Shown piece after piece: positions 42,108 through 59,017 of a stretch of 64,000 nt of DNA. The position numbers and the translations under genes are program-made. The DNA is taken from assembly GCA_963768805.1 (NCBI GenBank), contig CAVYJI010000010.1:163947-227946 (forward strand). The letters are read 5' to 3'. The notes below the pieces were generated by a model. That model saw only the letters and a program-made list of their open reading frames with translations, ran no database searches and was not told the origin of the DNA. Origin of the DNA: an uncultured Bacteroidales bacterium (GTDB lineage: Bacteria; Bacteroidota; Bacteroidia; Bacteroidales; FEN-979). The stretch's first letter is position 1. Each line of letters starts with the position of its first letter.

Positions 42108-42184
42108 TGGTGACCCCAGAGGGAGTCAAACCCCCAACCTTCAGATCCGTAGTCTGACGCTCTATTCAGTTGAGCTATGGGGCC
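42108..42184 (-). tRNA. tRNA-Arg(ACG)
   Basis: Reverse complement GGCCCCATAGCTCAACTGAATAGAGCGTCAGACTACGGATCTGAAGGTTGGGGGTTTGACTCCCTCTGGGGTCACCA folds as a cloverleaf; anticodon ACG; encoded CCA. Confidence 0.95.
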
Positions 42185-42286: not shown

Positions 42287-42352
42287 CATACCTATCACTG
42301 GCTGGAGTGCTGAAAAGCCTTGTTTTACCTGGTAATAGCTAAAAAAGGTGTG

Positions 42353-43906
42353 ATGATCATAATCGGAAACCGTAAACTGACGATCGGCGATTTCTTCAAG
42401 GTGTTGTTTGAAGGTGAACGAGTAGACATTGATATAGAATCCCGTCGAAAAGTTGCTGAAGACTTTGAGTTCCTGAAAGAGTTTGCCAAGGGGAAAGTGA
42501 TCTATGGCATCAATACTGGCCTGGGGCCCATGGCCCAGATCAAGATCAACGACAACCGGGAACTGGAACTGCAATACAACCTGATACGAAGCCATGCAGC
42601 AGGTTGCGGTTCTCCCCTCCCCGATATTTATGCCAAAGCCACCATGCTTGCACGACTGAACACGTTGGTCCAGGCTAAATCAGGGATCCATCCCGAGGTT
42701 GTGGAGTTGCTGAAAGAGATGATCAACAGGGATATCAACCCTTATATCCCGGAACACGGAGGCGTGGGCGCCAGTGGTGACCTTGTCCAGTTAGCCCATC
42801 TGGCCGTGAACCTGATCGGTGAAGGAGAAGTATCATACAAAAGAGTTTTGCGTCCTACAGCTGAAGTTTTAAAAGAGGAAGGCCTGGCGCCCATCAAGAT
42901 GCACATCCGCGAAGGACTGGGGCTGATCAACGGAACTTCTGCCATGACCGGGATAGGGATGATCAATGCCATCCATGCACATAACCTGCTTGATTGGTCT
43001 ACCCTGGCTTCATCCATGATAACTGAGATCGTGGAATCATATGATGATCATTTTTCCGATGGGCTGAACAATGCAAAATCACATCACGGGCAAAGACAGG
43101 TTGCCCGGAACATGAAATTCATCCTCAGGGATAGCCAGCTGATCCGTCGCCGGGCAGATCATCTTTACAATAATGATAAAACAATTGAAGTTGAAGTTTT
43201 CAAGCACAAGGTGCAGGAATATTATTCCCTGCGCTGTGTTCCACAGGTACTGGGACCTGTAATGGATACTATATTATATTCCAACCATGTGCTTATGAAT
43301 GAAGTGAACTCCACAAGTGATAATCCTATCATTGACGGGGAACATCACAATGTTTACCATGGCGGTAATTTTCATGGTGATTATGTTGCCCTGGAAATGG
43401 ACAAGCTTAAGATTGCTATTACTAAGTTATCGATGCTTGCCGAAAGACAATTGAACTATTTAATGAATCCGAAGCTTAACGAGAAACTACCGCCGTTCGT
43501 AAATCTTGGCAGACTTGGTCTCAACCTTGGCATGCAGGGAGTTCAATTCACTGCGGTTTCAACGGTTGCCGAGAATCAGACACTTTCATTCCCTATGTAT
43601 ATCCACAGTATTACCAACAATAACGATAACCAGGATATTGTAAGCATGGGGACCAATGCTGCACTGATTGCGAAAAAGGTCATTGATAATACTTACCAGG
43701 TGCTGGCCATAGAGATGATCTCTATCCTCCAGGCCATTGACTATCTTCAGATCAAAGACAAATTATCTTCTTATTCATTCAGTAAATACATGGACCTGCG
43801 GCAGATCGTTCCGAAATTCACGGAAGATACGATCAAGTACAACGACATCCGCAACATCGAACAATATATCATGGAGAACAAACCTCAGTTTTCAGTAGAT
43901 GAATGA
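42353..43906 (+). CDS. Aromatic amino acid ammonia-lyase (HAL/PAL/TAL family; probable tyrosine ammonia-lyase)
   Basis: IYGINTG, LQYNLIRSH, MIO-forming GASGDL, YSLRCVPQ, GGNFHG and NQDIVSMG motifs; first gene of the cluster. Confidence 0.9.
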   Translation: MIIIGNRKLTIGDFFKVLFEGERVDIDIESRRKVAEDFEFLKEFAKGKVIYGINTGLGPMAQIKINDNRELELQYNLIRSHAAGCGSPLPDIYAKATMLARLNTLVQAKSGIHPEVVELLKEMINRDINPYIPEHGGVGASGDLVQLAHLAVNLIGEGEVSYKRVLRPTAEVLKEEGLAPIKMHIREGLGLINGTSAMTGIGMINAIHAHNLLDWSTLASSMITEIVESYDDHFSDGLNNAKSHHGQRQVARNMKFILRDSQLIRRRADHLYNNDKTIEVEVFKHKVQEYYSLRCVPQVLGPVMDTILYSNHVLMNEVNSTSDNPIIDGEHHNVYHGGNFHGDYVALEMDKLKIAITKLSMLAERQLNYLMNPKLNEKLPPFVNLGRLGLNLGMQGVQFTAVSTVAENQTLSFPMYIHSITNNNDNQDIVSMGTNAALIAKKVIDNTYQVLAIEMISILQAIDYLQIKDKLSSYSFSKYMDLRQIVPKFTEDTIKYNDIRNIEQYIMENKPQFSVDE

Positions 43907-43941
43907 GTCTGTTTTTCCATCACTAAACCAACAACGCTACG

Positions 43942-44670
43942 ATGAAATATGCGCTCGTAACCGGAGGTTCAAGAGGCATTGGAAGAGCTGTTTGCTGTAA
44001 GCTTGCAGAGATGGGTTTTTATATTCTGGTCAATTACAATTCCAGCCCGGAAGAAGCTGCAATCACCCTGAACCTGGTGAAGGAAAAAGGAAGCGATGGG
44101 GAACTTATCAAGTTCGATGTCGCCCTTAAGGAAGAAGTGGAAAAAGCGCTTAGTGACTGGCAAGCACACAATGAAGGAAAGACTATCCAGATATTGATTA
44201 ATAATGCAGGTATCCGGAGGGATGCCCTTTTGATGTGGATGAAGGATGAGGAGTGGGATGATGTTCTTAAAACCAACCTGGACGGGTTCTTTTATTGTAC
44301 AAGATTTCTCATAAAAGACATGCTGATCTCTAAATTCGGCAGGATTGTCAACGTGGTTTCACTATCAGGGATAAAAGGATTGCCGGGACAAGCCAATTAT
44401 TCTGCGGCTAAAGCAGGTATTATCGGAGCGACTAAAGCGCTGGCCCAAGAAGTTGCCAAGAAGAATGTGACCGTGAATGCTGTTGCACCCGGTTTCATAC
44501 AATCTGACATGACCAAGGACCTGGATGAGAACCAGCTCAGGACGATGATCCCGATGAACCGGTTTGGCAAGCCTGAAGAGGTTGCAGAAATTGTCGGGTT
44601 CCTGGCTTCTGAAAAAGCTTCTTATATTACGGGGGAGGTCATTAATGTGAACGGTGGCCTTTACACCTGA
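43942..44670 (+). CDS. fabG: 3-oxoacyl-ACP reductase
   Basis: TGGSRGIG, NNAG, NYSAAK and VNGG SDR motifs. Confidence 0.92.
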   Translation: MKYALVTGGSRGIGRAVCCKLAEMGFYILVNYNSSPEEAAITLNLVKEKGSDGELIKFDVALKEEVEKALSDWQAHNEGKTIQILINNAGIRRDALLMWMKDEEWDDVLKTNLDGFFYCTRFLIKDMLISKFGRIVNVVSLSGIKGLPGQANYSAAKAGIIGATKALAQEVAKKNVTVNAVAPGFIQSDMTKDLDENQLRTMIPMNRFGKPEEVAEIVGFLASEKASYITGEVINVNGGLYT

Positions 44671-44695
44671 TCATAAAAATAATGAGCATTTATAA

Positions 44696-45925
44696 ATGTC
44701 GATGAACAGGGTTGTCATTACCGGAATGGGTATATATTCTGTCATTGGGAAGGATCTCGGTGAGGTTAAGAATTCATTATACGAGGGAAGATCGGGGATT
44801 ATATTTGATCCGGTCCGCAAGGCAATAGGATTCCGTTCCGCACTCACCGGCACTGTTGAGCGTCCTGTCCTTAAGGGCATTCTCGACCGCCGCATGCGTG
44901 TAGGATTACCAGTCCAGGGTGAATATGCTTACATGGCAACTGTCGAGGCATTGCGTAATGCAGGTATCGATGCTGCTTTCATGGAAAAAAATGATGTAGG
45001 CATCCTTTACGGTAATGACAGTTCTGCTTTACCCGTCGTTGAATCGGTGGATATCCTGCGTCAGAAAAAAGACACCATGATGATCGGATCGGGATACATC
45101 TTTCAATCGATGAATTCCACCGTTTCGATGAACCTCTCAGTGATCTTTAAGTTCAGGGGGATCAATTTCACGGTCAGTGGCGCATGTGCCAGCGGATCAC
45201 ATGCCATAGGCATAGGGTTCCTTCTTATCCGTCAGGGTTTGCAAGAAGTAATTGTCTGCGGTGGCGCGCAGGAGATCAACGTTGAATCGACGGCGAGCTT
45301 CGATGCGCTGAATGCATTTTCCACACGCGAATCGGAACCTGAAAAAGCATCAAGGCCTTTTGACCGCGACCGTGACGGACTTGTTCCCAGCGGCGGAGCT
45401 GCAACGGTCATTCTGGAGAGTTATGAATCTGCGATCAGAAGAGGTGCAACGATCTTAGGTGAAGTGGTTGGTTATGGATTTTCTTCCAACGGCGAACATA
45501 TCTCCCTGCCAAATGTTGATGGTCCGGTCTCAGCCATGTCGCTGGCATTGAAAGACGCAGGGATGGATGCTTCAGATATCGATTATATCAATGCACATGC
45601 AACATCAACGCCTGCAGGAGATGAAAATGAAGCCAAAGCCATTGACCAGATTTTTGGCAAGTCACGTCCGCCGGTCTCAAGCACAAAATCGATGACAGGA
45701 CACGAGATGTGGATGGGTGGAGCGAGCGAGATCGTCTATTCCACGCTGATGATGAATAATGACTTCATTGCGCCAAATATTAATTTTGACAATCCTGATA
45801 AATACACTGAACTCCTGAATATTGCCTCGCATACAACCCAGGCTGAGATCAAGGCATTTCTGTCAAACTCTTTCGGATTCGGAGGAACCAACTCTTCCCT
45901 TATCGTCAGAAAAATTAATCAGTAA
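44696..45925 (+). CDS. Beta-ketoacyl-ACP synthase (KS)
   Basis: GACASGSH, NAHATST, KSMTGH and SFGFGG motifs (Cys-His-His intact). Confidence 0.92.
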   Translation: MSMNRVVITGMGIYSVIGKDLGEVKNSLYEGRSGIIFDPVRKAIGFRSALTGTVERPVLKGILDRRMRVGLPVQGEYAYMATVEALRNAGIDAAFMEKNDVGILYGNDSSALPVVESVDILRQKKDTMMIGSGYIFQSMNSTVSMNLSVIFKFRGINFTVSGACASGSHAIGIGFLLIRQGLQEVIVCGGAQEINVESTASFDALNAFSTRESEPEKASRPFDRDRDGLVPSGGAATVILESYESAIRRGATILGEVVGYGFSSNGEHISLPNVDGPVSAMSLALKDAGMDASDIDYINAHATSTPAGDENEAKAIDQIFGKSRPPVSSTKSMTGHEMWMGGASEIVYSTLMMNNDFIAPNINFDNPDKYTELLNIASHTTQAEIKAFLSNSFGFGGTNSSLIVRKINQ

Positions 45926-45970
45926 CTTCTTAAAAAAAACGTTATTTTTGCATCAAACTAACCGTGTTGC

Positions 45971-46222
45971 ATGATGCAAAATGAGGAGATCATAAAGAGA
46001 ATCAATCAGTTACTGATTGATGAAATCGAAATTGACGAAGAACAGATTTCCCCTTCAGCCGATCTGAAAAAAGACCTGGGAATAGACAGTCTTGATTTTG
46101 TTGATCTCTTCGTGATCATAGAGAATAATTTCGGTTTCAAGATGAAAGCCGAGGAGATGACCGATATAAAGAAGCTGGATGATTTTTATGCATATGTGAT
46201 CCGGAGAGTCAATCCAAATTAA
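45971..46222 (+). CDS. Acyl carrier protein
   Basis: Acidic 83-aa protein with LGIDSLD phosphopantetheine site. Confidence 0.93.
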   Translation: MMQNEEIIKRINQLLIDEIEIDEEQISPSADLKKDLGIDSLDFVDLFVIIENNFGFKMKAEEMTDIKKLDDFYAYVIRRVNPN

Positions 46223-46228
46223 CTGTTA

Positions 46229-48505
46229 ATGTCATCATGGAAAGGCAAAACACGAGGGGGCGTCCTGGGATATAAGATCTTCGTCTGGACCCTTAAGCAT
46301 TTTGGACTTTCTTTTGCCTATTTCCTTCTTATATTTGTCGTTACCTATTTCATATTCTCTTCAAGGAAAGCATTTCGCTCTATCTATTATTATTTTCACA
46401 GGATACTAAATTATAGCGTTCTTCATTCGTTGGGCAGTGTTTATCTGAATTATTATTATTTCGGGCAGATCATACTGGATAAGATAGCGATCCTGGCCGG
46501 GTTGCAGCAAAAGTTCACTTTCAATTTTGAAGGAGAGGAATATCTCCGCCAGATGGACAAGGGTGGCCTGCTTATCAGCGGGCATATCGGGAACTGGGAG
46601 ATTGCAGGGCAGTTGCTCAACCGGCTTGAAAAGAATATCAACATCATATTGTACGATGCAGAGCATGAGCAAATCAAAGGTTACTTATCGAATGTATTCA
46701 CTGAGCGCAAGGTCAATTTCATCATCATAAAGGAAGATTATTCACACTTGCAGGAGATCAGGGAAGCGCTGGAACGCCATGAGATCATAGCCATGCATGG
46801 CGATCGTTTCATAGAAGGAAATAAGGTATTCCAGGTGGATCTGCTGGGGAAGCCTGCCCTTTTTCCTGCAGGGCCCGTTAATCTCGCTGCTCGTTTCGGA
46901 GTGCCTGTCTCATATGTCTTTGCAGTAAAAGAGACCAGGAAGCACTATCATTTTTTTGCCACTCCATTACGAAATGTTGAATTTTCGACGAACCTGAAGA
47001 AAAGGGAGATCATCCTGAAAGAAGCAGTGGAGGCTTATGTTGCAGCGCTCGAGAAGATTGTAACCAGGTATCCGCTCCAGTGGTTCAACTATTATAAATT
47101 CTGGGATTTGCGGGAAAAGACCTCATATCCGGGAGCGCCTGGCAGAATAAAAAAAAGAAAATTACTTCTTGTTTCTTCAAATCAATGTGTTTTTCCTTAC
47201 CCGGTCTACCCTATCGGGCTTTCATATATCTATTCCTATCTTTCAGCAAGGTTACCTGACTTCGAGATCCGTATTTTCGATTTTAATTTTCATACCCTGG
47301 CATCTTTCCGTGAATTTCTTCTTGAGTTCAGGCCTGATTATACGGGTATCTCCCTGCGTAATATGGATGATGTGGACTCAACCCGAAAGACATGGTTTCT
47401 GAAGGGATACAAGGATATCATTGAGACGCTAAAAAATAGTGTGAGCACCCGCATCATTATCGGCGGATCTGCATTTTCCATATTCCCAATTGAATTATTC
47501 AAGTACTTTGAGCCTGACTTCGGTATCTGCGGTGAGGGGGAAGAAAGCATGTTTAACCTTCTCCAGTGCCTGGAAAATAAAACGGATCCCTCTTCCATAG
47601 AAGGACTGGTATACAGGAATTCAGAGGGGATCCAGATGAACCCTAGGAACCATTACCTGAAGCAGTTGGATCTTTCATTCGATATCGATCTTCTTGATTT
47701 TTACTGGAAAAAAAGCGGGATGCTTAACATTCAGAGTAAGCGGGGGTGCCCTCATAAATGTATTTATTGCACTTATCCTCTTATTGAAGGAAGAGAAGTC
47801 AGGACGCTGAATGCAGATAAAATTGTCGAGACCTTGTCCGAACTGTATTTTGACAAGGATATCAATTATGTTTTCTTTACAGATTCTGTCTTCAACATCA
47901 ATGATTCATTCAATATTGAGCTGGCTGAAAAAATACTGAAAGCACGTTTAAAAATCAAATGGGGCGCTTATTTTTCCCCTCACGGCCTGGACAGGCAGAC
48001 ATTGCAGCTTTATGCAGATGCAGGGCTGACCCACATAGAATTCGGGACAGAATCACTTTCTGATACCACTCTGAAAAATTATGGCAAGCATTTTACTGTA
48101 CAGGAAGTCGTTGATGTTTCAGATCTCTGCAATGAAATAGGGATCTATTTTTCTCATTTCCTGATCCTTTGCGGATATGGAGAGACGGAAGAAACGATCA
48201 ATGAAGGATTTGAGAACTCGAAGCGTTTCAACAATACGGTCTTCTTCCCTTATATCGGCATGCGTATCTATCCCGGTACCCGCCTGCAGGAGTTGGCTAT
48301 TAAAGACGGCGTAATCTCCTCTGAAGACGACTTACTGGAACCGGTATACTATCTGGCTAAAGGAATCAATTACAGCACTTTAAAAGAACGGGCTGATAAA
48401 ACAGGGAGAAGGTTTGTATTCCCTGATGAAGATGTCGTTACAGTGATGAATAAAATGAGGGCCCGGCAAAGAAAAGGAATGTTATGGCATCATCTGAAAA
48501 AATAA
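46229..48505 (+). CDS. Fusion: LpxL-like acyltransferase + B12-binding/radical SAM lipid-biosynthesis protein
   Basis: Residues ~1-292: WKGKTRGG, GHIGNWE, HGDRF, YPLQWFNYY. Residues ~310-758: LLLVSSN...PYPVYPIGL, IIGGSAFS, GEGE, RGCPHKCIYC, FTDSVFN, EFGTES. Confidence 0.88.
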   Translation: MSSWKGKTRGGVLGYKIFVWTLKHFGLSFAYFLLIFVVTYFIFSSRKAFRSIYYYFHRILNYSVLHSLGSVYLNYYYFGQIILDKIAILAGLQQKFTFNFEGEEYLRQMDKGGLLISGHIGNWEIAGQLLNRLEKNINIILYDAEHEQIKGYLSNVFTERKVNFIIIKEDYSHLQEIREALERHEIIAMHGDRFIEGNKVFQVDLLGKPALFPAGPVNLAARFGVPVSYVFAVKETRKHYHFFATPLRNVEFSTNLKKREIILKEAVEAYVAALEKIVTRYPLQWFNYYKFWDLREKTSYPGAPGRIKKRKLLLVSSNQCVFPYPVYPIGLSYIYSYLSARLPDFEIRIFDFNFHTLASFREFLLEFRPDYTGISLRNMDDVDSTRKTWFLKGYKDIIETLKNSVSTRIIIGGSAFSIFPIELFKYFEPDFGICGEGEESMFNLLQCLENKTDPSSIEGLVYRNSEGIQMNPRNHYLKQLDLSFDIDLLDFYWKKSGMLNIQSKRGCPHKCIYCTYPLIEGREVRTLNADKIVETLSELYFDKDINYVFFTDSVFNINDSFNIELAEKILKARLKIKWGAYFSPHGLDRQTLQLYADAGLTHIEFGTESLSDTTLKNYGKHFTVQEVVDVSDLCNEIGIYFSHFLILCGYGETEETINEGFENSKRFNNTVFFPYIGMRIYPGTRLQELAIKDGVISSEDDLLEPVYYLAKGINYSTLKERADKTGRRFVFPDEDVVTVMNKMRARQRKGMLWHHLKK

Positions 48506-48924
48506 TAGTGACTGAAGGGACAATAGGACAATACATCCCGCAAAAGCCTCCGATCGTTATGATCGGGAAGCTGATTGATGTAACCGATACCCAAACTACT
48601 ACTTCACTGGTTATCCAGGAGGATAATCTGTTTTGCAGTGAAGGATTTTTAAGAGAGCCGGGCCTTATTGAAAACATAGCCCAGACTGCAGCAGCCGGCA
48701 AAGGGTACGTTTCGAAAATGGCAGGGAAAGAGCCTCCGGTCGGATTTATAGGGGGGTTGAGAGATCTGAAGATCCATGAACTTCCCAGGGTGGGTAGTGA
48801 AATCAGAACGGAAGTCACGTTGTTACATAAAGTCTTAGAAGCAACTGTTGTAAATGGAAAAGTCTATCTCGGTGACCGGTGCATTGCAGAATGCGAATTG
48901 AAGATATTCTTGCTACCAACCTGA
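48484..48924 (+). CDS. Hotdog-fold 3-hydroxyacyl-ACP dehydratase
   Basis: IPQKPPIVMI, GLIENIAQTAAA and VGFIGG motifs. Confidence 0.8.
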   Translation: MASSEKIIVTEGTIGQYIPQKPPIVMIGKLIDVTDTQTTTSLVIQEDNLFCSEGFLREPGLIENIAQTAAAGKGYVSKMAGKEPPVGFIGGLRDLKIHELPRVGSEIRTEVTLLHKVLEATVVNGKVYLGDRCIAECELKIFLLPT

Positions 48925-49016
48925 ATTCACACGAAGCAAAATAAGAGGTGACCCGAGTTATGAATTTCGTTACCTTCGCATTTTAAAAAAGCAAGTTTAA
49001 CTTAATAGCGATTCAA

Positions 49017-49412
49017 ATGGAACAAGAATCAAATCCTGTTTACAAAAACCAGGCCTATGGCCAGTTCAGGGAACTTTTCTATTCTTATGGAGAAAGCGGC
49101 AGTTTTGAAAAACGCGTAGGATACCATGGAGAATCTGACAGGGTCACCCTTCAGCAAGCATGGGATCTTTTCAATGACCGGATTGAAGAAGCCAGGCAGA
49201 AAGTCAAAGCCGGGTTAGCCAGCCCGATTTTATATTACATGGAAAAAACACTTGTAACACCAATGGATCTTTCAATGCATGCTGGCATCATGGTTTGGAG
49301 AGTTAAACGTCACCTTAAACCAAAGGTATTTAACCGTCTCAGCGAGAAGACTTTGAAAAAATACACTGAAGTCTTCAACATCACACTCGAACAATTAAAA
49401 AATATTGATTAA
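49017..49412 (+). CDS. Hypothetical protein of flexirubin-type clusters (possible C-terminal HTH)
   Basis: SPILYYME...WRVKRHLKP...LKKYTEVF motifs; precedes the BtrH-like gene; TACCTTCG promoter-like site at 48971-48978. Confidence 0.7.
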   Translation: MEQESNPVYKNQAYGQFRELFYSYGESGSFEKRVGYHGESDRVTLQQAWDLFNDRIEEARQKVKAGLASPILYYMEKTLVTPMDLSMHAGIMVWRVKRHLKPKVFNRLSEKTLKKYTEVFNITLEQLKNID

Positions 49413-49428
49413 TTAAACCGTTCATATA

Positions 49429-50448
49429 ATGGAAAACAACAAAATTATGATAGATTATAAACACCGCCAGGCTGGTCATTGCGAAAGCGGTGCTACTTCA
49501 AATCTTTTTAACTTTTATGGTGTCGAAATGTCAGAACCGATGGCGTTCGGGATTGGGAACGGGTTGTATTTCAGCTACCTCCCCTTTCTGAAACTTCAGT
49601 TTGCCCCGATGATTTCATTTCGTAACCTGCCTAATACGGTATTTCACCGGTCGATGAAGTACCTGGGCGTGGATGCCACCGTGATCAAGAATTTCAAGGA
49701 ACCAAAGGAGTCGATGGCTGTGCTTGACCAGAACCTTGAAAAAGGAATTCCAACCGGCATGCAGGTTGGCGTTTTCAACCTGACCTTTTTCCCTCCTGAA
49801 TACCGGATGCATTACAATATGCATAACATTGTAGCTTTTGGCAAAGAAGGCAACGATTACTGGGTCAGTGATACCGTGATGGAATTTCCACAGCGGATCT
49901 CTTTTGAAGATCTTCAGAGGGTGCGTTGGGCAAAAGGAGCCTTTGCTCCCAAAGGAAAGATGTACTGGATCAATAATGTAAAAAAAGAGCTGGATATCAA
50001 GTCGGCAGTTGAAAAAGGGATAAAGAAGACGGTATATGAAATGATCAAGGTCCCCTTTCCCCTTATCGGAGTCAAAGGGATCCATTGGCTTGCAAAGGAC
50101 CTGAAGAAATGGCCGAAGAAGCATGGTAATGAAACTGCATCTTTTTACCTTGGTCAGATCATACGCATGTCGGAAGATTTCGGGACAGGCGGGGCCGGAT
50201 TCAGGTATATTTATGGGGCATTTCTTAAAGAAGCAGGAGAAAAATTCAACAACCCTGATCTGACCGCTGCTTCAGTCATGATGGGCAATGCTGCCAATCG
50301 TTGGAGGGAATTTACTTATATTGGTGCCCGCAATTGCAAGAATCGGTCAAAGCCTGAAGAAGATTACGGAAAACTCAGCAATATGCTGCATGAGATTGCA
50401 GATATGGAAAAAGATGTCTACGTAAAACTGGATAAAATAAAGTTCTAA
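49429..50448 (+). CDS. BtrH N-terminal domain / DUF4872 protein (papain-like fold)
   Basis: HCESG, SEPMAFGIG, HNIV and GTGGAGFRYIY motifs. Confidence 0.82.
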   Translation: MENNKIMIDYKHRQAGHCESGATSNLFNFYGVEMSEPMAFGIGNGLYFSYLPFLKLQFAPMISFRNLPNTVFHRSMKYLGVDATVIKNFKEPKESMAVLDQNLEKGIPTGMQVGVFNLTFFPPEYRMHYNMHNIVAFGKEGNDYWVSDTVMEFPQRISFEDLQRVRWAKGAFAPKGKMYWINNVKKELDIKSAVEKGIKKTVYEMIKVPFPLIGVKGIHWLAKDLKKWPKKHGNETASFYLGQIIRMSEDFGTGGAGFRYIYGAFLKEAGEKFNNPDLTAASVMMGNAANRWREFTYIGARNCKNRSKPEEDYGKLSNMLHEIADMEKDVYVKLDKIKF

Positions 50449-51201
50449 ATGGCTGAAGATCCCATTATTGAAATTAAAAAACTCAGTAAAAGATACAAAG
50501 GGTCGGATGAACCTGCCTTAGATAATATTACGCTGGATATTTATCCTTTTGAAATATTTGGTCTTCTCGGGCCAAACGGAGCAGGAAAGACCACTACGAT
50601 CTCTATCCTATGCGGCTTATTCAAACCGACTTCAGGAAATGTTGTTATTGACGGTTTCAATCTCAGCAGCGAACTCGAACAGATCAAGCAGGTGATCGGC
50701 GTGGTACCCCAGGATATTGCCCTCTACCCTACCCTTACTGCCCTGGAGAATCTTACATTTTTTGGAAATATGTATGGCCTTAGGGGCAGAGCACTGAAAG
50801 ATCTGATCATGGATCGCTTAGCTGCATTCGGTCTTGAAAGGTTTGCCAGGAAAAAGATCTCTACTTTTTCAGGTGGAATGAAACGCAGGGTTAACCTACT
50901 AGCAGGATTACTACATAGCCCAAAGATATTGTTCCTGGATGAGCCTACGGTGGGCATAGATGTTCAGTCAAAGATCGTCATCCTTGATTTTCTGCATAAA
51001 ATAAACAAGAAAGGGACCACTATCATCTATACCTCTCATTATATGGAAGAAGCGGAGAACCTCTGCACCCGCGTGTCCATCCTGGATCGTGGAAAGATCA
51101 TCTCAACCGGTAACCCTAAGGAACTGGTGGCTGATCACCCTGAATTCAAAAATCTCGAGAACCTCTTCCTGGCTTTAACGGGAAAAGAGTTAAGGGATTA
51201 A
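50449..51201 (+). CDS. ABC transporter ATP-binding protein
   Basis: GPNGAGKTT, FSGGMKRR, LDEPTVG and SHYMEE motifs. Confidence 0.93.
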   Translation: MAEDPIIEIKKLSKRYKGSDEPALDNITLDIYPFEIFGLLGPNGAGKTTTISILCGLFKPTSGNVVIDGFNLSSELEQIKQVIGVVPQDIALYPTLTALENLTFFGNMYGLRGRALKDLIMDRLAAFGLERFARKKISTFSGGMKRRVNLLAGLLHSPKILFLDEPTVGIDVQSKIVILDFLHKINKKGTTIIYTSHYMEEAENLCTRVSILDRGKIISTGNPKELVADHPEFKNLENLFLALTGKELRD

Positions 51202-51250
51202 AGCATATACAGAGTACCTCGTAAAAACTTAATTCGCACTGTCGAACCGG

Positions 51251-52552
51251 ATGTTTAAATTTATCTCAGCTGTCAGGAAAGAGTACCTTTTATTGCTTAG
51301 GGATAAAGCAGGAATTACCATTCTTTTCCTGATGCCAATGGTATTGATAGTAATCATGTCACTTATGCAGGAGGTCGGTTGGGATGCCATTGCAAAGGAA
51401 CCCAATGTTCATGTCCTGTTTGTAAACAATGACGCTGACAGTCTAGGGATCAACATGGAAAAAGGGCTTCGTTCATCCGGCTTCTTTGATGTGATCGATT
51501 CAGTAAATCATGTCCCGGTAACACAAGAATCGGCCAGGGCTGCGGTGAAAAAAGGCGATTACCTGATCGCTATTGTGGTCCCAAAGGGTATCACGCAAAC
51601 GATGAGGGCCAATGTGCGTGTGGCCGTTGCAAAGACACTGGCCGGCTTTGGAATGTTCAATCCGATGCTTTTGAACAATATAGTCCAGAAAGAAGTTGAC
51701 ACTGTTACTTTATTCTTCGACCCGACTATCAGGAAAGCCTTTAAAAATGCAGTTGTCAGTTCAATCAAGGAGTTCAATTACCAGAGTGAGACTGGAATGG
51801 TATTCAGGTCATTCAACACTGAGATGGCAAAACAATTCCCGGCATATAAGCCGCCGGATATTGAATACAGGGAAGTTCTCCGGTTCAAGGAAGTTTTCCC
51901 TAATTACAAGCAGGAGGAAGAGATCCCTACTACGGTTCAGCACAATGTCCCTGCATGGGCAATCTTCGCAATGTTCTTTATTATTATCCCGCTTACGGGG
52001 AGCATGATCAAAGAACGTGAAGAAGGAAGCCTGTCACGTCTGATGGCGATGCCTGTTTCTTATATTAAACTTCTTCTGGCAAGGGTTGCAATCTATTTTG
52101 TAGTATGCCTGGTACAATCCCTCCTGATGATTTTTTCAGGGATCTTCATCCTGCCGCTCTTTCATATTCCCATGCTGATAATCGGCAATCATATTCCTGA
52201 ACTGGCCGTTATGATCATTGTCACTGCGCTTGCAGCACTAGGTTATGGCCTGCTTGTAGGAACAATTGCAAATACCCACCAGCAGGCAGCCGCTTTCGGG
52301 GCAGTTTCGATTATCATCCTTGCCGCTATGGGAGGCTTATGGGTGCCTGTTTACCTGATGCCGACGGTAATGCGTCACATAGCTGTATTCAGTCCTCTTA
52401 ATTGGGCCATAAGTGGTTTTTACAATATCTTCCTGCGACATGGAGGATTTGCCACTATCCTTAATCCTGCCATCAAATTGCTGATATTTTTTCTCATATC
52501 GGTCTTTATTACTTACCTATACAGGAGAATTAAAAGCCCACTCAATATATAA
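51251..52552 (+). CDS. ABC-2 transporter permease
   Basis: KEYLLLLRD, a large periplasmic loop, QHNVPAW, GGLWVP and SPLNW; about 6 TM helices. Confidence 0.9.
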   Translation: MFKFISAVRKEYLLLLRDKAGITILFLMPMVLIVIMSLMQEVGWDAIAKEPNVHVLFVNNDADSLGINMEKGLRSSGFFDVIDSVNHVPVTQESARAAVKKGDYLIAIVVPKGITQTMRANVRVAVAKTLAGFGMFNPMLLNNIVQKEVDTVTLFFDPTIRKAFKNAVVSSIKEFNYQSETGMVFRSFNTEMAKQFPAYKPPDIEYREVLRFKEVFPNYKQEEEIPTTVQHNVPAWAIFAMFFIIIPLTGSMIKEREEGSLSRLMAMPVSYIKLLLARVAIYFVVCLVQSLLMIFSGIFILPLFHIPMLIIGNHIPELAVMIIVTALAALGYGLLVGTIANTHQQAAAFGAVSIIILAAMGGLWVPVYLMPTVMRHIAVFSPLNWAISGFYNIFLRHGGFATILNPAIKLLIFFLISVFITYLYRRIKSPLNI

Positions 52553-52553
52553 T

Positions 52554-52970
52554 ATGGAACTCATCGACCGGAAAGAAGTTACAGTAAGATTCGGAGAAGT
52601 CGATTCCATGTCAATCGTATGGCATGGAAATTATCTTAAGTACTTTGAAGATGGCCGGGAATCCTTCGGTGCAAAATATAACCTTGGTTACCTGGATGTT
52701 CACAGGCATAATGTCATGATTCCTATTGTCAAAGTGACTTGTGATTTTAAAAAGCCCCTGGTCTATGGCGATGCTGCCATTATCGAGACAAGGTTCATTA
52801 ACACGGAAGCTGCAAAGATCCTTTTTGAATATTCGGTATACAGGAAAAGTGATCTGGAGCTAATGGCTACAGGCACTTCAATGCAGGTCTTCCTGACACC
52901 GGAAAAAGAGTTGTTGCTCACGGCGCCGGAATTTTTTATTGGCTGGAAGAAAAAATGGGGACTTTTGTGA
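52554..52970 (+). CDS. Acyl-CoA/ACP thioesterase (4HBT family)
   Basis: VRFGEVDSMSIVWHGNYLKYFEDGRE. Confidence 0.9.
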   Translation: MELIDRKEVTVRFGEVDSMSIVWHGNYLKYFEDGRESFGAKYNLGYLDVHRHNVMIPIVKVTCDFKKPLVYGDAAIIETRFINTEAAKILFEYSVYRKSDLELMATGTSMQVFLTPEKELLLTAPEFFIGWKKKWGLL

Positions 52971-52981
52971 ATGATAAGATA

Positions 52982-54148
52982 ATGAAGAACATCTATATAG
53001 CAGGAGATAATATTGTTAATTCCCTCGGTTTTTCCACCACAGAAGTAATCAGAAAGGTGGAATCCGGCAGGACAGGATTAGATAAGAACGATGACCGTTC
53101 GCTGACATCTGCAGCTTTGCCTCTCTCTCTCGTAGATACTGAATTATTGACCTCAAAGTTCGGTGAGGTATTAGGCAAACGCCACCCGGATATGAATGAA
53201 AATGAATTTACCCGCCTGGAAAAGATGTTCATCGTTTCTATCGATCGTGCCTTAGAAAAAACAGAAAAAGATATTTATGGAGACAATTCCCTCCTTATAA
53301 TATCCAGTACCAAAGGTAATATCGATCTGCTTGAAGCAGGGAAAAGTGAATTTGCGGATCCTGAACGGATCTACCTTTGGAAGATGGCCGACCTGATCGG
53401 GTCATTCTTCAGGTTTGCCAACAGGCCTGTGGTGGTCTCGAATGCCTGTATCTCAGGTATCCTTGCATTGAGCATTGCAGCGAGGATGATCGATGCGGGG
53501 TTGTATGATCATGTTGTAATAGCAGGAGGTGACTTGCTTTCAGAATTTGTCATTTCAGGATTTCTCTCATTCCAGGCCCTAAGTCCCGAACCTTGCAGGC
53601 CGTTTGATATTGCCAGGAATGGTCTCTCACTTGGGGAAGGATGTGGCACACTGGTACTTTCATCCATATTAAAAAAATCGACTTTAATAACAGTTTCAGG
53701 ATCAGCTATCACCAATGATGCCAATCACATATCAGGGCCTTCGCTTACTGGGGAAGAGCTTGCCTTGGCCATGATGCGGTCTATGAATGAAGCATTATTA
53801 AATCCGGATGAAATAGATTTCATTTCCGCCCATGGAACAGCTACCCTTTACAATGATGAGATGGAGTCAAAAGCAATTAAAATTGCCGGTTTGCAACCAG
53901 TCCCTGTAAACAGTTTCAAAGGCTATTGGGGACATACGCTGGGAGCAGCAGGTGTGATTGAATCTATTGCGACGATCCGCTCAATGGAGGACAATCTGTT
54001 ATTCAGTTCTGCCGGATATGATGAACCTGGTACGCCTGTTCTCCTGAACGTGGTCAGGAAAAATACCAGGGTAGAATTGCAGAACTGTCTTAAAACCGCA
54101 TCCGGATTTGGCGGGTGCAATGCAGCAATGGTTTTCCATAAGATATAA
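52982..54148 (+). CDS. Beta-ketoacyl synthase
   Basis: SNACISG, SAHGTAT, GHTLGAAG and SGFGG motifs. Confidence 0.9.
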   Translation: MKNIYIAGDNIVNSLGFSTTEVIRKVESGRTGLDKNDDRSLTSAALPLSLVDTELLTSKFGEVLGKRHPDMNENEFTRLEKMFIVSIDRALEKTEKDIYGDNSLLIISSTKGNIDLLEAGKSEFADPERIYLWKMADLIGSFFRFANRPVVVSNACISGILALSIAARMIDAGLYDHVVIAGGDLLSEFVISGFLSFQALSPEPCRPFDIARNGLSLGEGCGTLVLSSILKKSTLITVSGSAITNDANHISGPSLTGEELALAMMRSMNEALLNPDEIDFISAHGTATLYNDEMESKAIKIAGLQPVPVNSFKGYWGHTLGAAGVIESIATIRSMEDNLLFSSAGYDEPGTPVLLNVVRKNTRVELQNCLKTASGFGGCNAAMVFHKI

Positions 54149-54161
54149 TCGTTAAAAAAGA

Positions 54162-54821
54162 ATGGCCGAATCCTGTTACATAACTCATTCGAACATCATC
54201 CGCAAGAATGCAGTAATACGGAATGATAAAGTCGAGCCAATCAATGAAATTTTTGTTAATTTTGGAGCCTTCATTAAAACACTTTATAAAAAGGAAATGA
54301 TCAGTTATCCTAAGTTTTATAAGATGGATAATCTGAGCAAATTGGGGTTCCTGGGTGCTGAGATGCTTTTTAATGAGGCTTCGTTCTTTGACCGGTACAG
54401 AAAAGAAGATATTGGTATTTTGATCATGAATTCAAGTTCGAGCCTGGATACTGATCTGTCCTATAACGAAACGATCAAAGATAAATCCAATTATTATCCA
54501 AGCCCTTCTCTTTTTGTATATACACTGGCCAATATTGTGATAGGAGAAATCTGTATCAGGCATAAGATCAAAGGCGAAAATGCATTTTTCGTTTCTGATC
54601 ATTTTGAACCGGCAAAGATCAAAGAACTGGTAAGTTTAATGCTCGACAAAGATCATGCACAGGTTTGTCTTTGCGGATGGGTTGAAGTCCTGAAAGATGA
54701 ATTCGAATCGGTGCTTTTCCTTGTCGAAAAAGAAAAAAACATATTAGAACATCTTTTTAGGGGTGAATATTTACCTTTTAACATTGAGAGTCTGACACAA
54801 TTGTATCAAAACAACCAATAA
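54162..54821 (+). CDS. Truncated KS N-terminal-domain / chain-length-factor-like protein
   Basis: YPKFYKMDNLSKLG and PSPSLFVYTLANIVIGEI motifs; no recognisable catalytic triad. Confidence 0.8.
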   Translation: MAESCYITHSNIIRKNAVIRNDKVEPINEIFVNFGAFIKTLYKKEMISYPKFYKMDNLSKLGFLGAEMLFNEASFFDRYRKEDIGILIMNSSSSLDTDLSYNETIKDKSNYYPSPSLFVYTLANIVIGEICIRHKIKGENAFFVSDHFEPAKIKELVSLMLDKDHAQVCLCGWVEVLKDEFESVLFLVEKEKNILEHLFRGEYLPFNIESLTQLYQNNQ

Positions 54822-54826
54822 AACCT

Positions 54827-55084
54827 ATGGACGAACTGATTGATAAACTGAAGCAAGAAGTCATACAACAGTTGAACCTTGAAGATATTTCAGCTGCGGA
54901 TATTGATCCGGATTCCCCATTGTTCGGGGAGGGGCTTGGGCTGGATTCGATCGATGCCCTTGAACTTATCGTTCTACTGGAAAAGAATTACGGGATTAAG
55001 ATAGAAGACCCCAAAGACGGGAAAAAAATATTTTACTCCATCCGCACAATGGCTGAGTTTATTACAGAGCATAAAAAAACCTGA
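54827..55084 (+). CDS. Acyl carrier protein
   Basis: LFGEGLGLDSIDALE. Confidence 0.93.
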   Translation: MDELIDKLKQEVIQQLNLEDISAADIDPDSPLFGEGLGLDSIDALELIVLLEKNYGIKIEDPKDGKKIFYSIRTMAEFITEHKKT

Positions 55085-55087
55085 TAA

Positions 55088-56290
55088 ATGGCGCGACGGA
55101 TCTTTGTTACCGGATTAGGTATCATCACCGGCATCGGCAATGATCTCGCAGAAACCAAAGATTCCCTTTTTCATTTAAGGTCGGGTATTGGAAAGATCCG
55201 ATTCCTGGAAACCAATCTCAGGGATGAGATCCCTGTTTCTGAGGTAAAGTGCTCACTTGAGGAATGTTTTCATCTTGCAGGGATCCCCGTGACCGAAGGA
55301 TATTCACGCAATGCTTTACTGGGAATCATAGCTTCCAAACAAGCTTTTCAGGATGCCCGAATTGGGGATCTCCCCAACAGGCGTACCGGACTCATTTCTG
55401 CGACGACAGTAGGCGGAATGGATCGCTGTGAATTATTTTACCAGGATTTCCTGGCGAATGACAATAAGAACATTTATATTGACTCCTACGATTGTGCAGA
55501 CAGTACTGAAAAGATAGCAGATCTGCTAAAAATCAAAGATTATATAACCACTATAAGCACGGCTTGTTCCTCCTCTGCCAATGCCATCCAACTCGGAGCA
55601 CGAATGATCAGGAACGGCGATCTTGACCGGGTTGTTGCAGGGGGTACAGAGACCCTTACCAAATTTCATCTTGATGGCTTTAATTCATTGAAGATACTGG
55701 ATAAGGAACTTTGCAAACCTTTCGATGAGAAGAGGAATGGAATTAACCTTGGGGAAGGCGCAGCATATATTGTTCTTGAATCTGAAGAATCGGTGGATCA
55801 TTCCGGTGAAAGTGTGATCTGTGAACTTACCGGCTGGGGGAATTCCTGTGAGGCGTTCCATCAGACTGCATCATCTCCGGATGGGATCGGCGCATATCTT
55901 GCCATGAAAAAAGCACTTGAAATGAGTGGGTTAAATGCAGAAGATATCCATTATATCAATGCACATGGAACAGGGACTGACAACAATGATGTTTCAGAGG
56001 GAACAGCAATAGAGAGACTCTTCAGTAACCGGATACCACCTGTCAGTTCTACAAAACCTTATACCGGTCATACAACAAGCGCTGCCGGTGCAACAGAAGC
56101 CATAATCTCTATACTTTGCCTGCTTGAACAGGTAATCTGGCCAAATCTGAATTTTTCAGAACCAATGAAGGAACTTAATTTCATTCCTGTCAAAAAACTA
56201 ATGACAGGGCTAAAGGTCGGCAATGTAATGACCAACTCATTTGGGTTTGGGGGGAATGATACAAGCTTGATCTTTTCGAGGGTTAAATAA
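55088..56290 (+). CDS. Beta-ketoacyl-ACP synthase (aryl-polyene-type KS)
   Basis: STACSSSAN, NAHGTGT, GHTTSAAG and SFGFGG motifs. Confidence 0.92.
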   Translation: MARRIFVTGLGIITGIGNDLAETKDSLFHLRSGIGKIRFLETNLRDEIPVSEVKCSLEECFHLAGIPVTEGYSRNALLGIIASKQAFQDARIGDLPNRRTGLISATTVGGMDRCELFYQDFLANDNKNIYIDSYDCADSTEKIADLLKIKDYITTISTACSSSANAIQLGARMIRNGDLDRVVAGGTETLTKFHLDGFNSLKILDKELCKPFDEKRNGINLGEGAAYIVLESEESVDHSGESVICELTGWGNSCEAFHQTASSPDGIGAYLAMKKALEMSGLNAEDIHYINAHGTGTDNNDVSEGTAIERLFSNRIPPVSSTKPYTGHTTSAAGATEAIISILCLLEQVIWPNLNFSEPMKELNFIPVKKLMTGLKVGNVMTNSFGFGGNDTSLIFSRVK

Positions 56291-56319
56291 TGGTAACCAA
56301 TTCATCAGGCAAATAACAG

Positions 56320-57381
56320 ATGTCAGCTTACATTAACGGTATCGGAATCATCTCTCCTCAGAAAACTGCGGAAGCGAATGATTTCCTTACAGAGATCATG
56401 GAATACGATGCTGATTACCTGAAGTGTATCGAACCTGTAAGTTATAAAGCCTATATTGACCCGATCCAGTCGCGGCGAATGAGCAGGCTGATCAAGATTG
56501 GCATTGCATCGGCAAAAATGTGCCTGAATGAGGCCGGGAGTGCCATGCCCGATGCTATTATAACTGGCACAGGGCTTGGAAGCGTAGAAGATACTGAGAG
56601 AATTCTTGGAACTATCCACCATGACCAGCCGTTCCTTAACCCTACTCCATTCATGCAATCGACCTATAACACGATAAGCTCACAGATCGCTATTCAGTTG
56701 AAATGCCATAATTATAATTCAACTTACGTTCACCGTACCTTTTCTTTTGAAAGCTGTCTCCAGGACGCATTGTTGCAGATCGCCGAAGGAACAGCAAAGG
56801 ATGTTCTTGCCGGGGGAATTGATGAGATGACCCTGAACCATCTTACCATCACAAGACGCCCTGGTCACTGGAAAAAAACGCAAGTCAGGAACCTTGAGAT
56901 GCTGAAATGGAATTCACCGGGGGCACTGGCAGGTGAAGGTGCAGGTTATTTCCTGCTTTCAGCAGAGAAAAATGACAGATCATATGCCTGCCTAAGAGCC
57001 GTAAAAACCCTTTATAAACCAGCAATTCCTGATGAACTCCTGCTTCGCCTGACCAGCATGCTTTCAGCATCCGGTCTGACTGCTCCTGATATTGACCTGT
57101 TGATATTGGGTATCAATGGCGATAACCGTTATGATCACTTCTATTATGAGTTGGCAGGGACGCTTTTCCCGTCCACCTGCATCGCTTATTTCAAACACCT
57201 CTGTGGTGAGTACCATACTGCTACCAGCTTTGCACTATGGCTAGCCGCAAATATCCTGAAAAGACAGACAATTCCTGCAATCATCAACATTAACAACCCA
57301 CTTCTTGGACCCGTCAGGAATATTTTAATCTACAACCAGTATTATAATGTGAATCATTCTTTTATCCTGATATCTCAATAA
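56320..57381 (+). CDS. Beta-ketoacyl synthase chain length factor
   Basis: RRMSRLIK, PTPFMQSTYN, GEGA and KHLCGEY motifs; catalytic-Cys motif not seen; follows the KS. Confidence 0.85.
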   Translation: MSAYINGIGIISPQKTAEANDFLTEIMEYDADYLKCIEPVSYKAYIDPIQSRRMSRLIKIGIASAKMCLNEAGSAMPDAIITGTGLGSVEDTERILGTIHHDQPFLNPTPFMQSTYNTISSQIAIQLKCHNYNSTYVHRTFSFESCLQDALLQIAEGTAKDVLAGGIDEMTLNHLTITRRPGHWKKTQVRNLEMLKWNSPGALAGEGAGYFLLSAEKNDRSYACLRAVKTLYKPAIPDELLLRLTSMLSASGLTAPDIDLLILGINGDNRYDHFYYELAGTLFPSTCIAYFKHLCGEYHTATSFALWLAANILKRQTIPAIININNPLLGPVRNILIYNQYYNVNHSFILISQ

Positions 57382-57435: not shown

Positions 57436-58317
57436 TTATTTCCAGAAATTATAATAATTATGCCACTGCAGCGGATATTTTCGAGTTATCCTTTCAAGTT
57501 CAGCAACATACTCTTTTACAGAGTCAATCACCACGGCTGAACGTTCCATTGGATTTTTAGCAGGTGGAATGATCTTTAAAGGAGTGGCATAAAACCTATA
57601 TTTTCTGCGTGATTCTTTTAGAGCAAAAACATAAGAAACCGGAACATTGAAATAAGATGCCATATGCCATGGGCCTAACGGAAAAAGAGCAGGCTCACCT
57701 AAAAAATCAATTTTAACTGTTTGATTTCCATCTATAAACCTGTCGCCAAGAAAAGATACTAGTTCTTTATTCTCCAGGGCTTGTTTTATTTCAAACAAAT
57801 GTGAGAAGTCATTACCAATTTTGATAAAGTAAACATTCCGGTCGGTTATAACATCGGAAATGTACTCACTAATAGCTTGCCATTCAGCATCTATAATAAC
57901 CAAACTGATTTTCTTATCAAGAAAGTCGAGTGCTTTTCCTCCCACTTCCCAATTCCCGATATGACCGCTGATAAGTATACCTCCATCTCTCATTCGCAAC
58001 AAATCCTCTTTTCCTTCAAGGATAAAGTCGAATTTGTCCTTCAAGCCGGCCAGTACGGCGGTCCTGTCAATCAATCCCTGGCCCAACAGATAGTAATTCC
58101 TATAAATGCTTACGATTGATTTAACACGGTTATGTCCAAGACGTCCATGGAAAAAGTAAAATAATGATCCGAATGTCTTTTTAGATGTAAAAACAAAATA
58201 AGCAGAAACAAAAATTAACAGGAAATAGGCAAAATCAATTCCCAGGTGCATTATGGTCCAGACAAATATCCTGTATCCAAGAACGCTTCCTCTGCTTTTG
58301 CCTTCCCAGGTGGCCAT
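57436..58317 (-). CDS. Stand-alone LpxL-like acyltransferase (paralog of the N-domain of 46229)
   Basis: WEGKSRGS, GHIGNWE, LGDRF and YPLQWHNYYNFW motifs. Confidence 0.88.
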   Translation of the reverse strand: MATWEGKSRGSVLGYRIFVWTIMHLGIDFAYFLLIFVSAYFVFTSKKTFGSLFYFFHGRLGHNRVKSIVSIYRNYYLLGQGLIDRTAVLAGLKDKFDFILEGKEDLLRMRDGGILISGHIGNWEVGGKALDFLDKKISLVIIDAEWQAISEYISDVITDRNVYFIKIGNDFSHLFEIKQALENKELVSFLGDRFIDGNQTVKIDFLGEPALFPLGPWHMASYFNVPVSYVFALKESRRKYRFYATPLKIIPPAKNPMERSAVVIDSVKEYVAELERITRKYPLQWHNYYNFWK

Positions 58318-58393
58318 AATAATTAAAAAGGATTAGAATTTAATATAACAGATTGATGGTTATCACGACAATATCCGGAATTATAATATATTA

Positions 58394-58921: not shown

Positions 58922-59017
58922 AAGGCACGGCTGTTAATATTTGTAAGTATTTCTCTGTAACTTTTGAATTCTCTACGAAATTATGACTTTTTGAAAAACA
59001 TCTCACCGATATTTGTG

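Follow-up and report, generated by a model that had tools for sequence, protein, structure and literature searches.

A flexirubin-like supercluster without darA and darB, with a radical SAM domain fused to an acyltransferase, in an uncultured Bacteroidales bacterium

The stretch of DNA considered here, referred to throughout as the window, comprises 64,000 nucleotides (nt) of an uncultured Bacteroidales bacterium (G000:C10:163947-227946, where G000 is the study genome; G labels denote genomes, and L labels the loci or DNA stretches compared). It carries a flexirubin-like pigment cluster that retains genes for tyrosine ammonia-lyase (TAL), a DarG-family protein and DarH, has neither darA nor darB, and includes a radical S-adenosylmethionine (radical SAM, rSAM) domain fused to an acyltransferase (AT), in a slot that related clusters give to the methyltransferase FlxJ. 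Window proteins were annotated by Pfam and NCBIfam searches with curated cut-offs, and these, with the listing of open reading frames (ORFs), bear out the gene order from TAL to a chain-length-factor (CLF)-like gene that had been proposed from the letters alone (the sequence-only reading). There are 16 co-directional ORFs on the plus strand at 42320/42353-57381, and because their spacings range from -22 to +92 nt the run fits one operon. The cluster had been taken to end at 57381, but it continues past both that point and the window end at 64000: the whole is a ~55-kb supercluster, extending from FlxA (42353) to FlxY (~97.5 kb in window-equivalent coordinates, which are L002 positions plus 63053 or L003 positions plus 83053), and the 15 kb at 42353-57381 are its 5' third. 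Its left border is marked by a tRNA-Arg gene (anticodon ACG; 42108-42184, minus strand) directly upstream of the first cluster gene.

That first gene, on the plus strand like the rest of the operon, encodes FlxA, the TAL (42353-43906; NF053541, 827.6 bits against a cut-off of 700; Lyase_aromatic, 539.6 bits). Its ORF opens at TTG 42320, and a start-codon check makes ATG 42353, 11 codons in, the likelier start. FlxB, a short-chain dehydrogenase/reductase-type ketoreductase (KR), follows (43942-44670; NF053542, 404.7 bits, cut-off 340), then KS1, a FabB/FabF-like ketosynthase (KS) with Pfam ketoacyl-synt N and C domains (44696-45925), in which the aligned Cys-His-His residues are intact (GACASG, NAHATST, TGHEM), and the acyl carrier protein (ACP) ACP1 (45971-46222; PP-binding, 45.4 bits). 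An aryl-CoA ligase had been reported missing; this holds within the window, but not as a difference in the pathway, since the ligase FlxY (NF053551, 718.7 bits, cut-off 520; L003:13176-14495, window-equivalent 96229-97548) is encoded ~32 kb past the window end. Because of this downstream FlxY, the starter pathway is predicted to be classical, with TAL and a 4-coumarate-type CoA ligase as in Chitinophaga pinensis, where both starter steps have been shown in vitro (PMC3992019).

After ACP1 comes a 758-aa fusion. Its N-terminal part is an LpxL-type AT domain (46229-47150; Lip_A_acyltrans, residues 97-287), membrane-anchored by a hydrophobic N-terminus and containing HIGNWE at residues 119-124, which we take to be the H-x4-D/E acyltransferase motif. 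The C-terminal part is a B12-binding/radical SAM domain (47159-48505; TIGR04072, 418.6 bits, cut-off 360, residues 311-756), with the CxxxCxxC motif present as CPHKCIYC at residues 507-514; a cobalamin-family radical SAM enzyme had been proposed here, and the family match and motif agree with this. The solved relative that matches the rSAM domain best is TsrM, a tryptophan C2-methyltransferase (6wte, E 8.3e-29), with AprD4, OxsB and CysS behind it, and the second-best NCBIfam family is BzaD (197 bits). The N-terminal part of the domain aligns to the B12-domain region of TsrM (profile 6-158), and family membership suggests that the enzyme uses cobalamin. DH1 (48484-48924), a 146-aa hot-dog protein and weakly FabZ-like dehydratase (DH; PRK00006 FabZ, 23.9 bits only), overlaps the 3' end of the rSAM coding region by 22 nt.

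The single-ORF fusion of AT and rSAM recurs in G087, of the same genus, and in L046, one of a set of 59 loci described below; in G083 the fusion frame is kept with one stop, and other members of the genus have separate genes. Since the two are separate elsewhere in the genus, the fusion is probably recent. Together with a 4-nt overlap of the AT and rSAM genes in G057, it argues that the two proteins cooperate physically. The AT domain (fusion residues 1-297) is 47-52% identical to stand-alone acyltransferases of ~305 aa in all five of the DarB-positive, rSAM-negative genomes identified below; all five have TAL, and no rSAM domain lies behind the acyltransferase in any, which refutes the idea that every flexirubin cluster includes the rSAM. 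The view that the rSAM is an anaerobe's replacement for an oxygen-dependent step was rejected for this host: G000 has two heme-copper oxidase subunit I genes (G000:C10:298497-299828 and C13:149202-150536; COX1, 495 and 214 bits), and NrdD was not found in its genome.

The small protein downstream of DH1 (49017-49412), previously a "hypothetical," belongs to the DarG family (NF053536, 116.7 bits, cut-off 70); on the narrower flexirubin_DarG equivalog it scores 116.4 bits, below the cut-off of 170. In its structural model (pLDDT 83) the C-terminal half weakly resembles an Xre-type helix-turn-helix (HTH), and the best fold match has an E of 5.7e-3, with TM scores of 0.7-0.8 (relative to target length) over ~59 residues; these matches are too weak to suggest a function. 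The BtrH-related acyltransferase DarH follows (49429-50448; NF053550, 411.7 bits, cut-off 300; BtrH_N and DUF4872), for which a sequence search found no solved relative, and then an ATP-binding cassette (ABC) transporter ATPase (50449-51201; ABC_tran, 113.7 bits) and an ABC-2 permease (51251-52552; ABC2_membrane_3, 109.9 bits). The remainder of the operon consists of a 4HBT-fold thioesterase (TE; 52554-52970; 4HBT_2, 58.1 bits; TIGR00051, 74.2 bits, cut-off 68.7); the ketosynthase KS2 (52955-54148; Pfam and alignment), Cys-His-His intact; KSn (54162-54821), a 219-aa protein resembling a KS N-terminus (fabF model, 29.5 bits, residues 24-149), which lacks the active-site Cys in the alignment and has orthologues in "classical" clusters; ACP2 (54827-55084; PP-binding; PRK09184, 86.3 bits, cut-off 70); the elongating ketosynthase KS3 (55088-56290; Pfam and alignment); and its CLF-like partner (56320-57381; Ketoacyl-synt_2, 31.1 bits), which by alignment has HRTFSF and no Cys.

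DarA and DarB, like the CoA ligase, are absent from the window, as had been noted; the proposal of a product other than classical flexirubin had been made to depend on darAB occurring neither beyond the 64 kb nor elsewhere in the genome, and searches of the genome found neither gene. For DarB, the DarB hidden Markov model (HMM) gave six weak sites in the whole G000 genome, all resembling KAS III (ketoacyl-ACP synthase III), the best at 80.7 bits against a cut-off of 550; this best match is a 377-aa KAS III inside the supercluster itself. DarA has no NCBIfam or Pfam model (NF053538, tried as one, belongs to another family and matched nowhere), and the query was a 313-aa gene adjoining DarB in a relative, for which the nearest Atlas clusters carry the name DarA (0.98). 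A single-query search of G000 gave no match, and an HMM made from four DarB-neighbour genes and run on the six-frame translation of G000 reached E 0.13 at best; a DarA fragment outside the HMM build, serving as positive control, scored 110.7 bits. A resorcinol made by a type III polyketide synthase (PKS) is ruled out by the absence of Chal_sti_synt_C from the G000 genome. A search for DarB also came up empty in 15 other members of the family (12 share the genus of G000); 13 of the 15 have the AT and rSAM genes, the two misses being 70% and 80% complete.

Within the limits of an assembly in 20 contigs with 99.3% completeness, darA and darB are thus truly absent. That ordinary flexirubin is made, and darAB were missed through an assembly gap or sequence divergence, is highly improbable: the number of contigs leaves room for a gap, and in C. 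pinensis the dar and flx genes are not linked (PMC3992019), but the assembly is nearly complete, three independent searches were negative where the control was positive, and no relative in the family has DarB. With darA, darB and type III PKS genes all missing from the genome, the acceptor is predicted to be something other than a DarAB-made 2,5-dialkylresorcinol. Judged by these gene contents (DarB at 80.7 bits, DarA at E 0.13), classical flexirubin cannot be the product, and on this the sequence-only reading was right.

It had also placed the rSAM and the dehydratase where the resorcinol module is expected, and here comparison with related clusters gives a different picture. In these, a FlxJ-like methyltransferase of ~355 aa lies between AT and DH1, in the order TAL-FlxB-KS1-(ACP1)-AT-FlxJ-DH1 in L107 and L108 and KS1-ACP1-AT-FlxJ-DH1-TE-KS2 in L110; L109 has AT-FlxJ-DarA. 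The FlxJ-like proteins are full-length matches to NF053543 (475-531 bits), with Methyltransf_2 and a dimerisation domain. DH1 orthologues follow FlxJ in L107, L108 and L110, which suggests that DH1 is native to its own position, in clusters with darAB as in those of the FlxJ type, and that the slot between AT and DH1 is variable, holding either FlxJ or the rSAM. With the rSAM in the slot of FlxJ and DH1 native, the two do not sit where the resorcinol module would.

The two occupants of the slot exclude each other in the genomes and loci sampled. The best FlxJ matches in the G000 genome, at 46 and 45.6 bits, fall far short of the cut-off of 560. Among 16 genomes from the order in which FlxJ was looked for, a FlxJ-like gene (at least 475 bits) is present in six of eight rSAM-negative genomes and in none of the eight with TIGR04072 over its cut-off (best 60 bits). 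A pattern scan with one genome per species, using an alignment of three rSAM domains as query, yielded 59 rSAM loci, most from metagenome-assembled genomes named Bacteroidales bacterium; their ORFs were labelled by BLAST against G000 and G048 proteins. No ORF of these loci is a FlxJ homologue (E <= 1e-5). AT is directly followed by rSAM in 47/59 and fused to it in one (L046), KS1-ACP1-AT-rSAM occurs in 36/59, and rSAM is directly followed by DH1 in 38/59; TAL is present in 29, DarG and DarH on the same strand in 19, and DarA or DarB in two. The 59 loci overlap partly with the order sample described next, and the two are not independent.

In that order sample, a fixed set of 81 genomes with G000 counted in, DarH scores over its cut-off in 14, DarB (E <= 1e-50) is found in 7, and TIGR04072 is over cut-off in 8. 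The 14 DarH genomes divide into six with rSAM and no DarB (G000, G023, G042, G045, G057, G073), five with DarB and no rSAM (G007, G025, G055, G056, G080), one with both (G048), and two with neither (G063 and the 82%-complete G005). Sampling 151 genomes across the phylum adds eight other DarH genomes, all from other orders: DarB is present in all eight (over cut-off in seven), and TIGR04072 is over cut-off in none (best 118 bits). The rSAM-type variant is kept throughout the family of the host and scattered across the order.

This skew fits the idea, put forward in the sequence-only reading, that the rSAM (with the dehydratase) functionally replaces the dialkylresorcinol (DAR) module, making or enabling a different scaffold; so does the position of AT-rSAM-DH1 in the window, directly upstream of DarG-DarH, a place that in G025 belongs to DarB-DH1. 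The sampled genomes are kin, however, and the skew may equally reflect shared descent. The rSAM and DarA-DarB occur together in two loci, sharing one operon in L028 and also in L049, where rSAM-DH1-...-KS2-DarA is partly visible at a contig end; the G048 order is rSAM-DH1-TE-KS2-(159 aa)-DarA-DarB-DarG-DarH. The slot taken by the rSAM belongs to FlxJ, and FlxJ-type clusters carry DH1 as well. G063 has FlxJ and DarH with neither DarB nor rSAM, and the loss of DarB is therefore not bound to the gain of the rSAM. Functional replacement of the DAR module is accordingly quite unlikely in our estimation.

The explanation we favour, and consider reasonably probable, is that this is a type II PKS/FAS-like aryl-polyene supercluster of the flexirubin family without a DarAB-made resorcinol, in which a TIGR04072 rSAM, probably a methylase, has displaced FlxJ in situ. 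The most likely product would be a tyrosine-primed aryl-polyene pigment lipid, lacking the dialkylresorcinol and tailored by the rSAM. Tyrosine would be deaminated and activated as for flexirubin, and extended without enoyl reduction to an aryl polyene; acyltransferases would then move the chain onto a lipid or alcohol acceptor, and the product would be exported to the outer membrane. In flexirubin, methionine is the source of the ring methyl and one hydrogen of the ring is lost; ring methylation varies among the natural forms (PMC3992019). The figure legend in that paper names "MT" only; a FlxJ-like SAM methyltransferase would be the obvious candidate for this step. The rSAM most likely performs the equivalent methylation, on the aryl ring or a nearby carbon of an ACP1- or acyltransferase-bound intermediate, and would not build a resorcinol substitute. 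Methylation is favoured because the domain occupies the FlxJ slot, because the majority of cobalamin-class rSAM enzymes are annotated as methylases (PMC13459092), and because TsrM is its nearest solved relative.

Several observations weigh against this explanation. The proposed function of the rSAM draws on position and distant similarity, the role of FlxJ is itself assigned indirectly, and every FlxJ-like match falls below the NCBIfam cut-off of 560. Pfam B12-binding has no match on the 758-aa fusion at E <= 0.001, and the part of a 2026 review that treats TIGR04072 records no proven activity for any member (PMC13459092). A methylase swap would not explain the four further B12-rSAM genes in the supercluster, nor the skew in DarB, which occurs in 1/8 rSAM genomes versus 5/7 rSAM-negative DarH genomes. 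DarG, DarH and the ABC pair have been kept, and even duplicated, without DarAB, which leaves the acceptor for DarH unaccounted for: DarH would esterify the polyene to an acceptor, a role suggested by BtrH and also by the BtrH-like genes that lie with darAB in Azoarcus (PMC3949708).

The remainder of the supercluster bears on two other possibilities. Immediately after the operon is an inverted segment (57436-62902), flanked by KS/CLF pairs, with three minus-strand genes: AT2, a second LpxL-type acyltransferase 52% identical to the AT domain of the fusion (57436-58317); a PEMT/ICMT-like membrane methyltransferase (58394-58921; PEMT, 38.8 bits); and a 1294-aa protein in which MMPL/RND exporter, PlsC acyltransferase and class I methyltransferase parts are fused (59018-62902; Pfam), with 39% identity to a 1291-aa protein of the G048 cluster. 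Both the LpxL-type acyltransferase and the ~1290-aa MMPL-PlsC-methyltransferase exporter are duplicated in the supercluster. On the plus strand again, KS3', a second elongating KS (63114-64000), is cut by the window end and continues to window-equivalent 64322. The aligned Cys-His-His residues are intact in KS1, KS2, KS3, KS3' and a downstream FabF, and the catalytic Cys is absent from both CLF-like proteins.

KS3' is followed by a CLF, a polysaccharide deacetylase, LolA2 (221.4 bits, cut-off 125), LolB2 (81.6 bits, cut-off 60) and a FabA-like dehydratase. Next is a block of a second thioesterase (TE2), two crotonases (ECH), the 377-aa KAS III, a 513-aa B12-rSAM and a 3-hydroxyacyl-CoA dehydrogenase, and then FabF, ACP, FabD-like and PNPOx-like genes with two B12-rSAM genes on the minus strand; one of these two, the second TIGR04072-like gene (L002:13732-15159), scores 327.1 bits, below the cut-off. 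A family 2 glycosyltransferase (GT2) and the second MMPL fusion (window-equivalent 80948-84814, plus strand) precede a phytoene-desaturase-like flavoenzyme (L003:1763-3238; Amino_oxidase), a C45 acyltransferase, a fifth B12-rSAM and an O-methyltransferase, and the series closes with an ABC-2 permease, a second DarG-like/DarH pair, an ACP and FlxY. The second DarG-like/DarH pair has diverged; its block (L003:10611-14495, window-equivalent 93664-97548), which also holds the ACP, a 241-aa protein without any family match and FlxY, lies divergently upstream of the TAL gene in several relatives. In total the supercluster has five intact ketosynthases, two CLF-like partners, at least four ACPs and four B12-rSAM genes besides the AT-fused one, along with hot-dog dehydratases, thioesterases, LpxL/PlsC-type acyltransferases, GT2, the deacetylase and ABC/MMPL exporters.

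One possibility is that an acceptor is made by the genes around the KAS III (L002:6794-7927, window-equivalent 69847-70980). Its best solved relative over the full length is the DarB-type cyclase StlD (5gk0, E 3.8e-12), and it is the best DarB match of the genome. DarB joins 3-oxoacyl and 2-enoyl thioesters (PMC13748660), which the crotonases and dehydrogenase could supply. A resorcinol-like or carbocyclic/alcohol acceptor might then be produced by the TE2-ECH-ECH-KAS III operon, the 3-hydroxyacyl-CoA dehydrogenase and the B12-rSAMs, with DarH esterifying it with the polyene. Orthologues of the KAS III (63-73% identity) occur in 6/81 genomes of the order, all among the eight rSAM genomes and none among the five that are DarB-positive and rSAM-negative, and the TE2-ECH-ECH-KAS III order is preserved in four of the five other genomes examined. 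On the other hand, the active site is Cys-Asn-Tyr in all five aligned orthologues where DarB and FabH have Cys-His-Asn, the Cys being kept while the catalytic His has become Asn and the shared Asn has become Tyr; family scores are far under the cut-offs (NF005293, 99.9 bits against 450; 82.3 against 550); G048 holds the operon alongside DarAB; in G057 it is ~900 kb from the pigment genes; and it may instead serve acyl transfer or beta-branching. On balance this is an unlikely origin for the acceptor. Similarly doubtful is the fuller form of the idea, in which the new acceptor is built by the TE-crotonase-crotonase-KAS III operon and the cobalamin rSAMs, and the AT-fused TIGR04072 carries out a radical C-methylation or C-C coupling in the stead of FlxJ. 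If true, the aryl-polyene pigments that these Bacteroidota place in the outer membrane would form a new class, and the "ladderane-type" rSAM family would gain its first assignable chemistry.

Another possibility is chance juxtaposition of a DAR-less aryl-polyene pigment cluster with one or two independent "ladderane-type" rSAM fatty-acid cassettes for an unrelated lipid. The sub-blocks of the supercluster are found in G057 at four separate places on three contigs, the FabF-ACP-FabD-like-PNPOx-rSAM-rSAM cassette standing alone, and similar clusters of type II fatty acid synthase (FASII) and rSAM genes are known outside pigment loci (PMC2649909). Against this, the AT-rSAM of the window lies inside the TAL-to-CLF operon, 6 nt and -22 nt from its neighbours, and the cassettes track the rSAM-type cluster: the second TIGR04072-like gene is found in 5/8 rSAM genomes and the KAS III in 6/8. 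Chance alone is thus an improbable explanation for the whole, but because of the dispersal in G057 some of its genes may belong to the pathway of a separate lipid.

Some features of the window outside the cluster can be recorded briefly. A dnaA gene (28940-30376, plus strand; Bac_DnaA, 208.6 bits) and a minimum of cumulative GC skew at ~34-36 kb indicate that the replication origin may adjoin the pigment cluster, at a distance of ~10 kb or less. About 2.6 kb upstream of the cluster, a 132-aa ORF (39298-39696, minus strand) has a weak match to an IS1595-type transposase zinc ribbon (22.8 bits, below the cut-off of 25.4). C-terminal sorting domains for type IX secretion, which fit a Bacteroidota host, are present on three proteins: an M14 carboxypeptidase (1463-3193, minus strand), an M1 peptidase (8699-10822, plus strand) and one of 467 aa (40465-41868, minus strand).

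Aryl-polyene (APE) clusters of E. coli CFT073 and Xenorhabdus doucetiae make APE lipids from a 4-hydroxybenzoate starter. The G000 locus shares with them KS/CLF pairs, at least two ACPs, a KR, hot-dog dehydratases, a thioesterase, acyltransferases of the LPLAT type, GT2, a LolA-like protein, an MMPL exporter and the lack of a resorcinol module. It differs in its tyrosine-derived 4-coumarate starter (TAL and FlxY) and in the addition of DarG/DarH, the ABC pair and the rSAMs. Clusters joining aryl-polyene genes to rSAM genes are widely flagged as "ladderane-type."

By its genes for initiation, elongation and export the supercluster belongs to the flexirubin/aryl-polyene family, and it has much in common with the flexirubin clusters of C. 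pinensis and Flavobacterium johnsoniae (PMC3992019). FlxA, FlxB, FlxY, DarH, LolA2 and LolB2 of G000 pass the NCBIfam flexirubin equivalog cut-offs, the genes run in the same order (TAL-KR-KS-ACP-AT-...-DH-...-TE-KS-ACP-KS-CLF-deacetylase-LolA), and a member of the DarG family and the KS/CLF-ACP-KR-DH set are in place. G000 is without DarA, DarB and FlxJ; the B12 rSAM, fused to the acyltransferase, is in the FlxJ slot, and the four B12-rSAM genes, the operon of the Cys-only StlD-like KAS III and the second DarG/DarH/ACP set are additional.

With the "ladderane-type" FASII/rSAM clusters of Kuenenia stuttgartiensis and Desulfotalea psychrophila (PMC2649909; PMC13459092) the supercluster has in common a TIGR04072 B12 rSAM, divergent FabF paralogues, a dedicated ACP, a hot-dog dehydratase and a phytoene-desaturase-like flavoenzyme; unlike them, it is set in a tyrosine-primed pigment pathway, in a host with heme-copper oxidases. 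An rSAM in place of a methyltransferase gene points to methylation rather than cyclobutane formation. In the loci for arcuflavin, a xanthomonadin-DAR hybrid, in Azoarcus sp. BH72, BtrH-like, small hypothetical and ABC genes likewise stand beside pigment genes, and the parts are modular and dispersed (PMC3949708); there the accessory genes flank darA-darB, whereas in G000 they persist without them.

What appears new here is the absence of darAB across the genome and family despite retention of DarG and DarH, the in-situ displacement of FlxJ by an rSAM together with the mutual exclusivity of the two, the acyltransferase-rSAM fusion, and the operon of the Cys-only StlD-like KAS III. Library searches gave no paper in which "flexirubin" and "radical SAM" occur together.

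The TIGR04072 family was linked to ladderane clusters in 2009, and no reaction has been assigned to it since; according to the 2026 review, ladderanes and the Jaw5 product alone among ketoacyl lipids have been suggested as radical-SAM substrates (PMC13459092). Because the rSAM of this cluster sits in a methyltransferase slot, and the two occupants of that slot exclude each other, the function of the family becomes experimentally tractable by simple tests (a 14-Da difference in the product, flxJ complementation). Aryl-polyene clusters are among the commonest biosynthetic clusters in Gram-negative bacteria, and flexirubin-type pigments are a chemotaxonomic marker of Bacteroidota. By their gene content, a whole family and many uncultured relatives within this phylum would hold a variant unable to make the resorcinol ester that defines these pigments.

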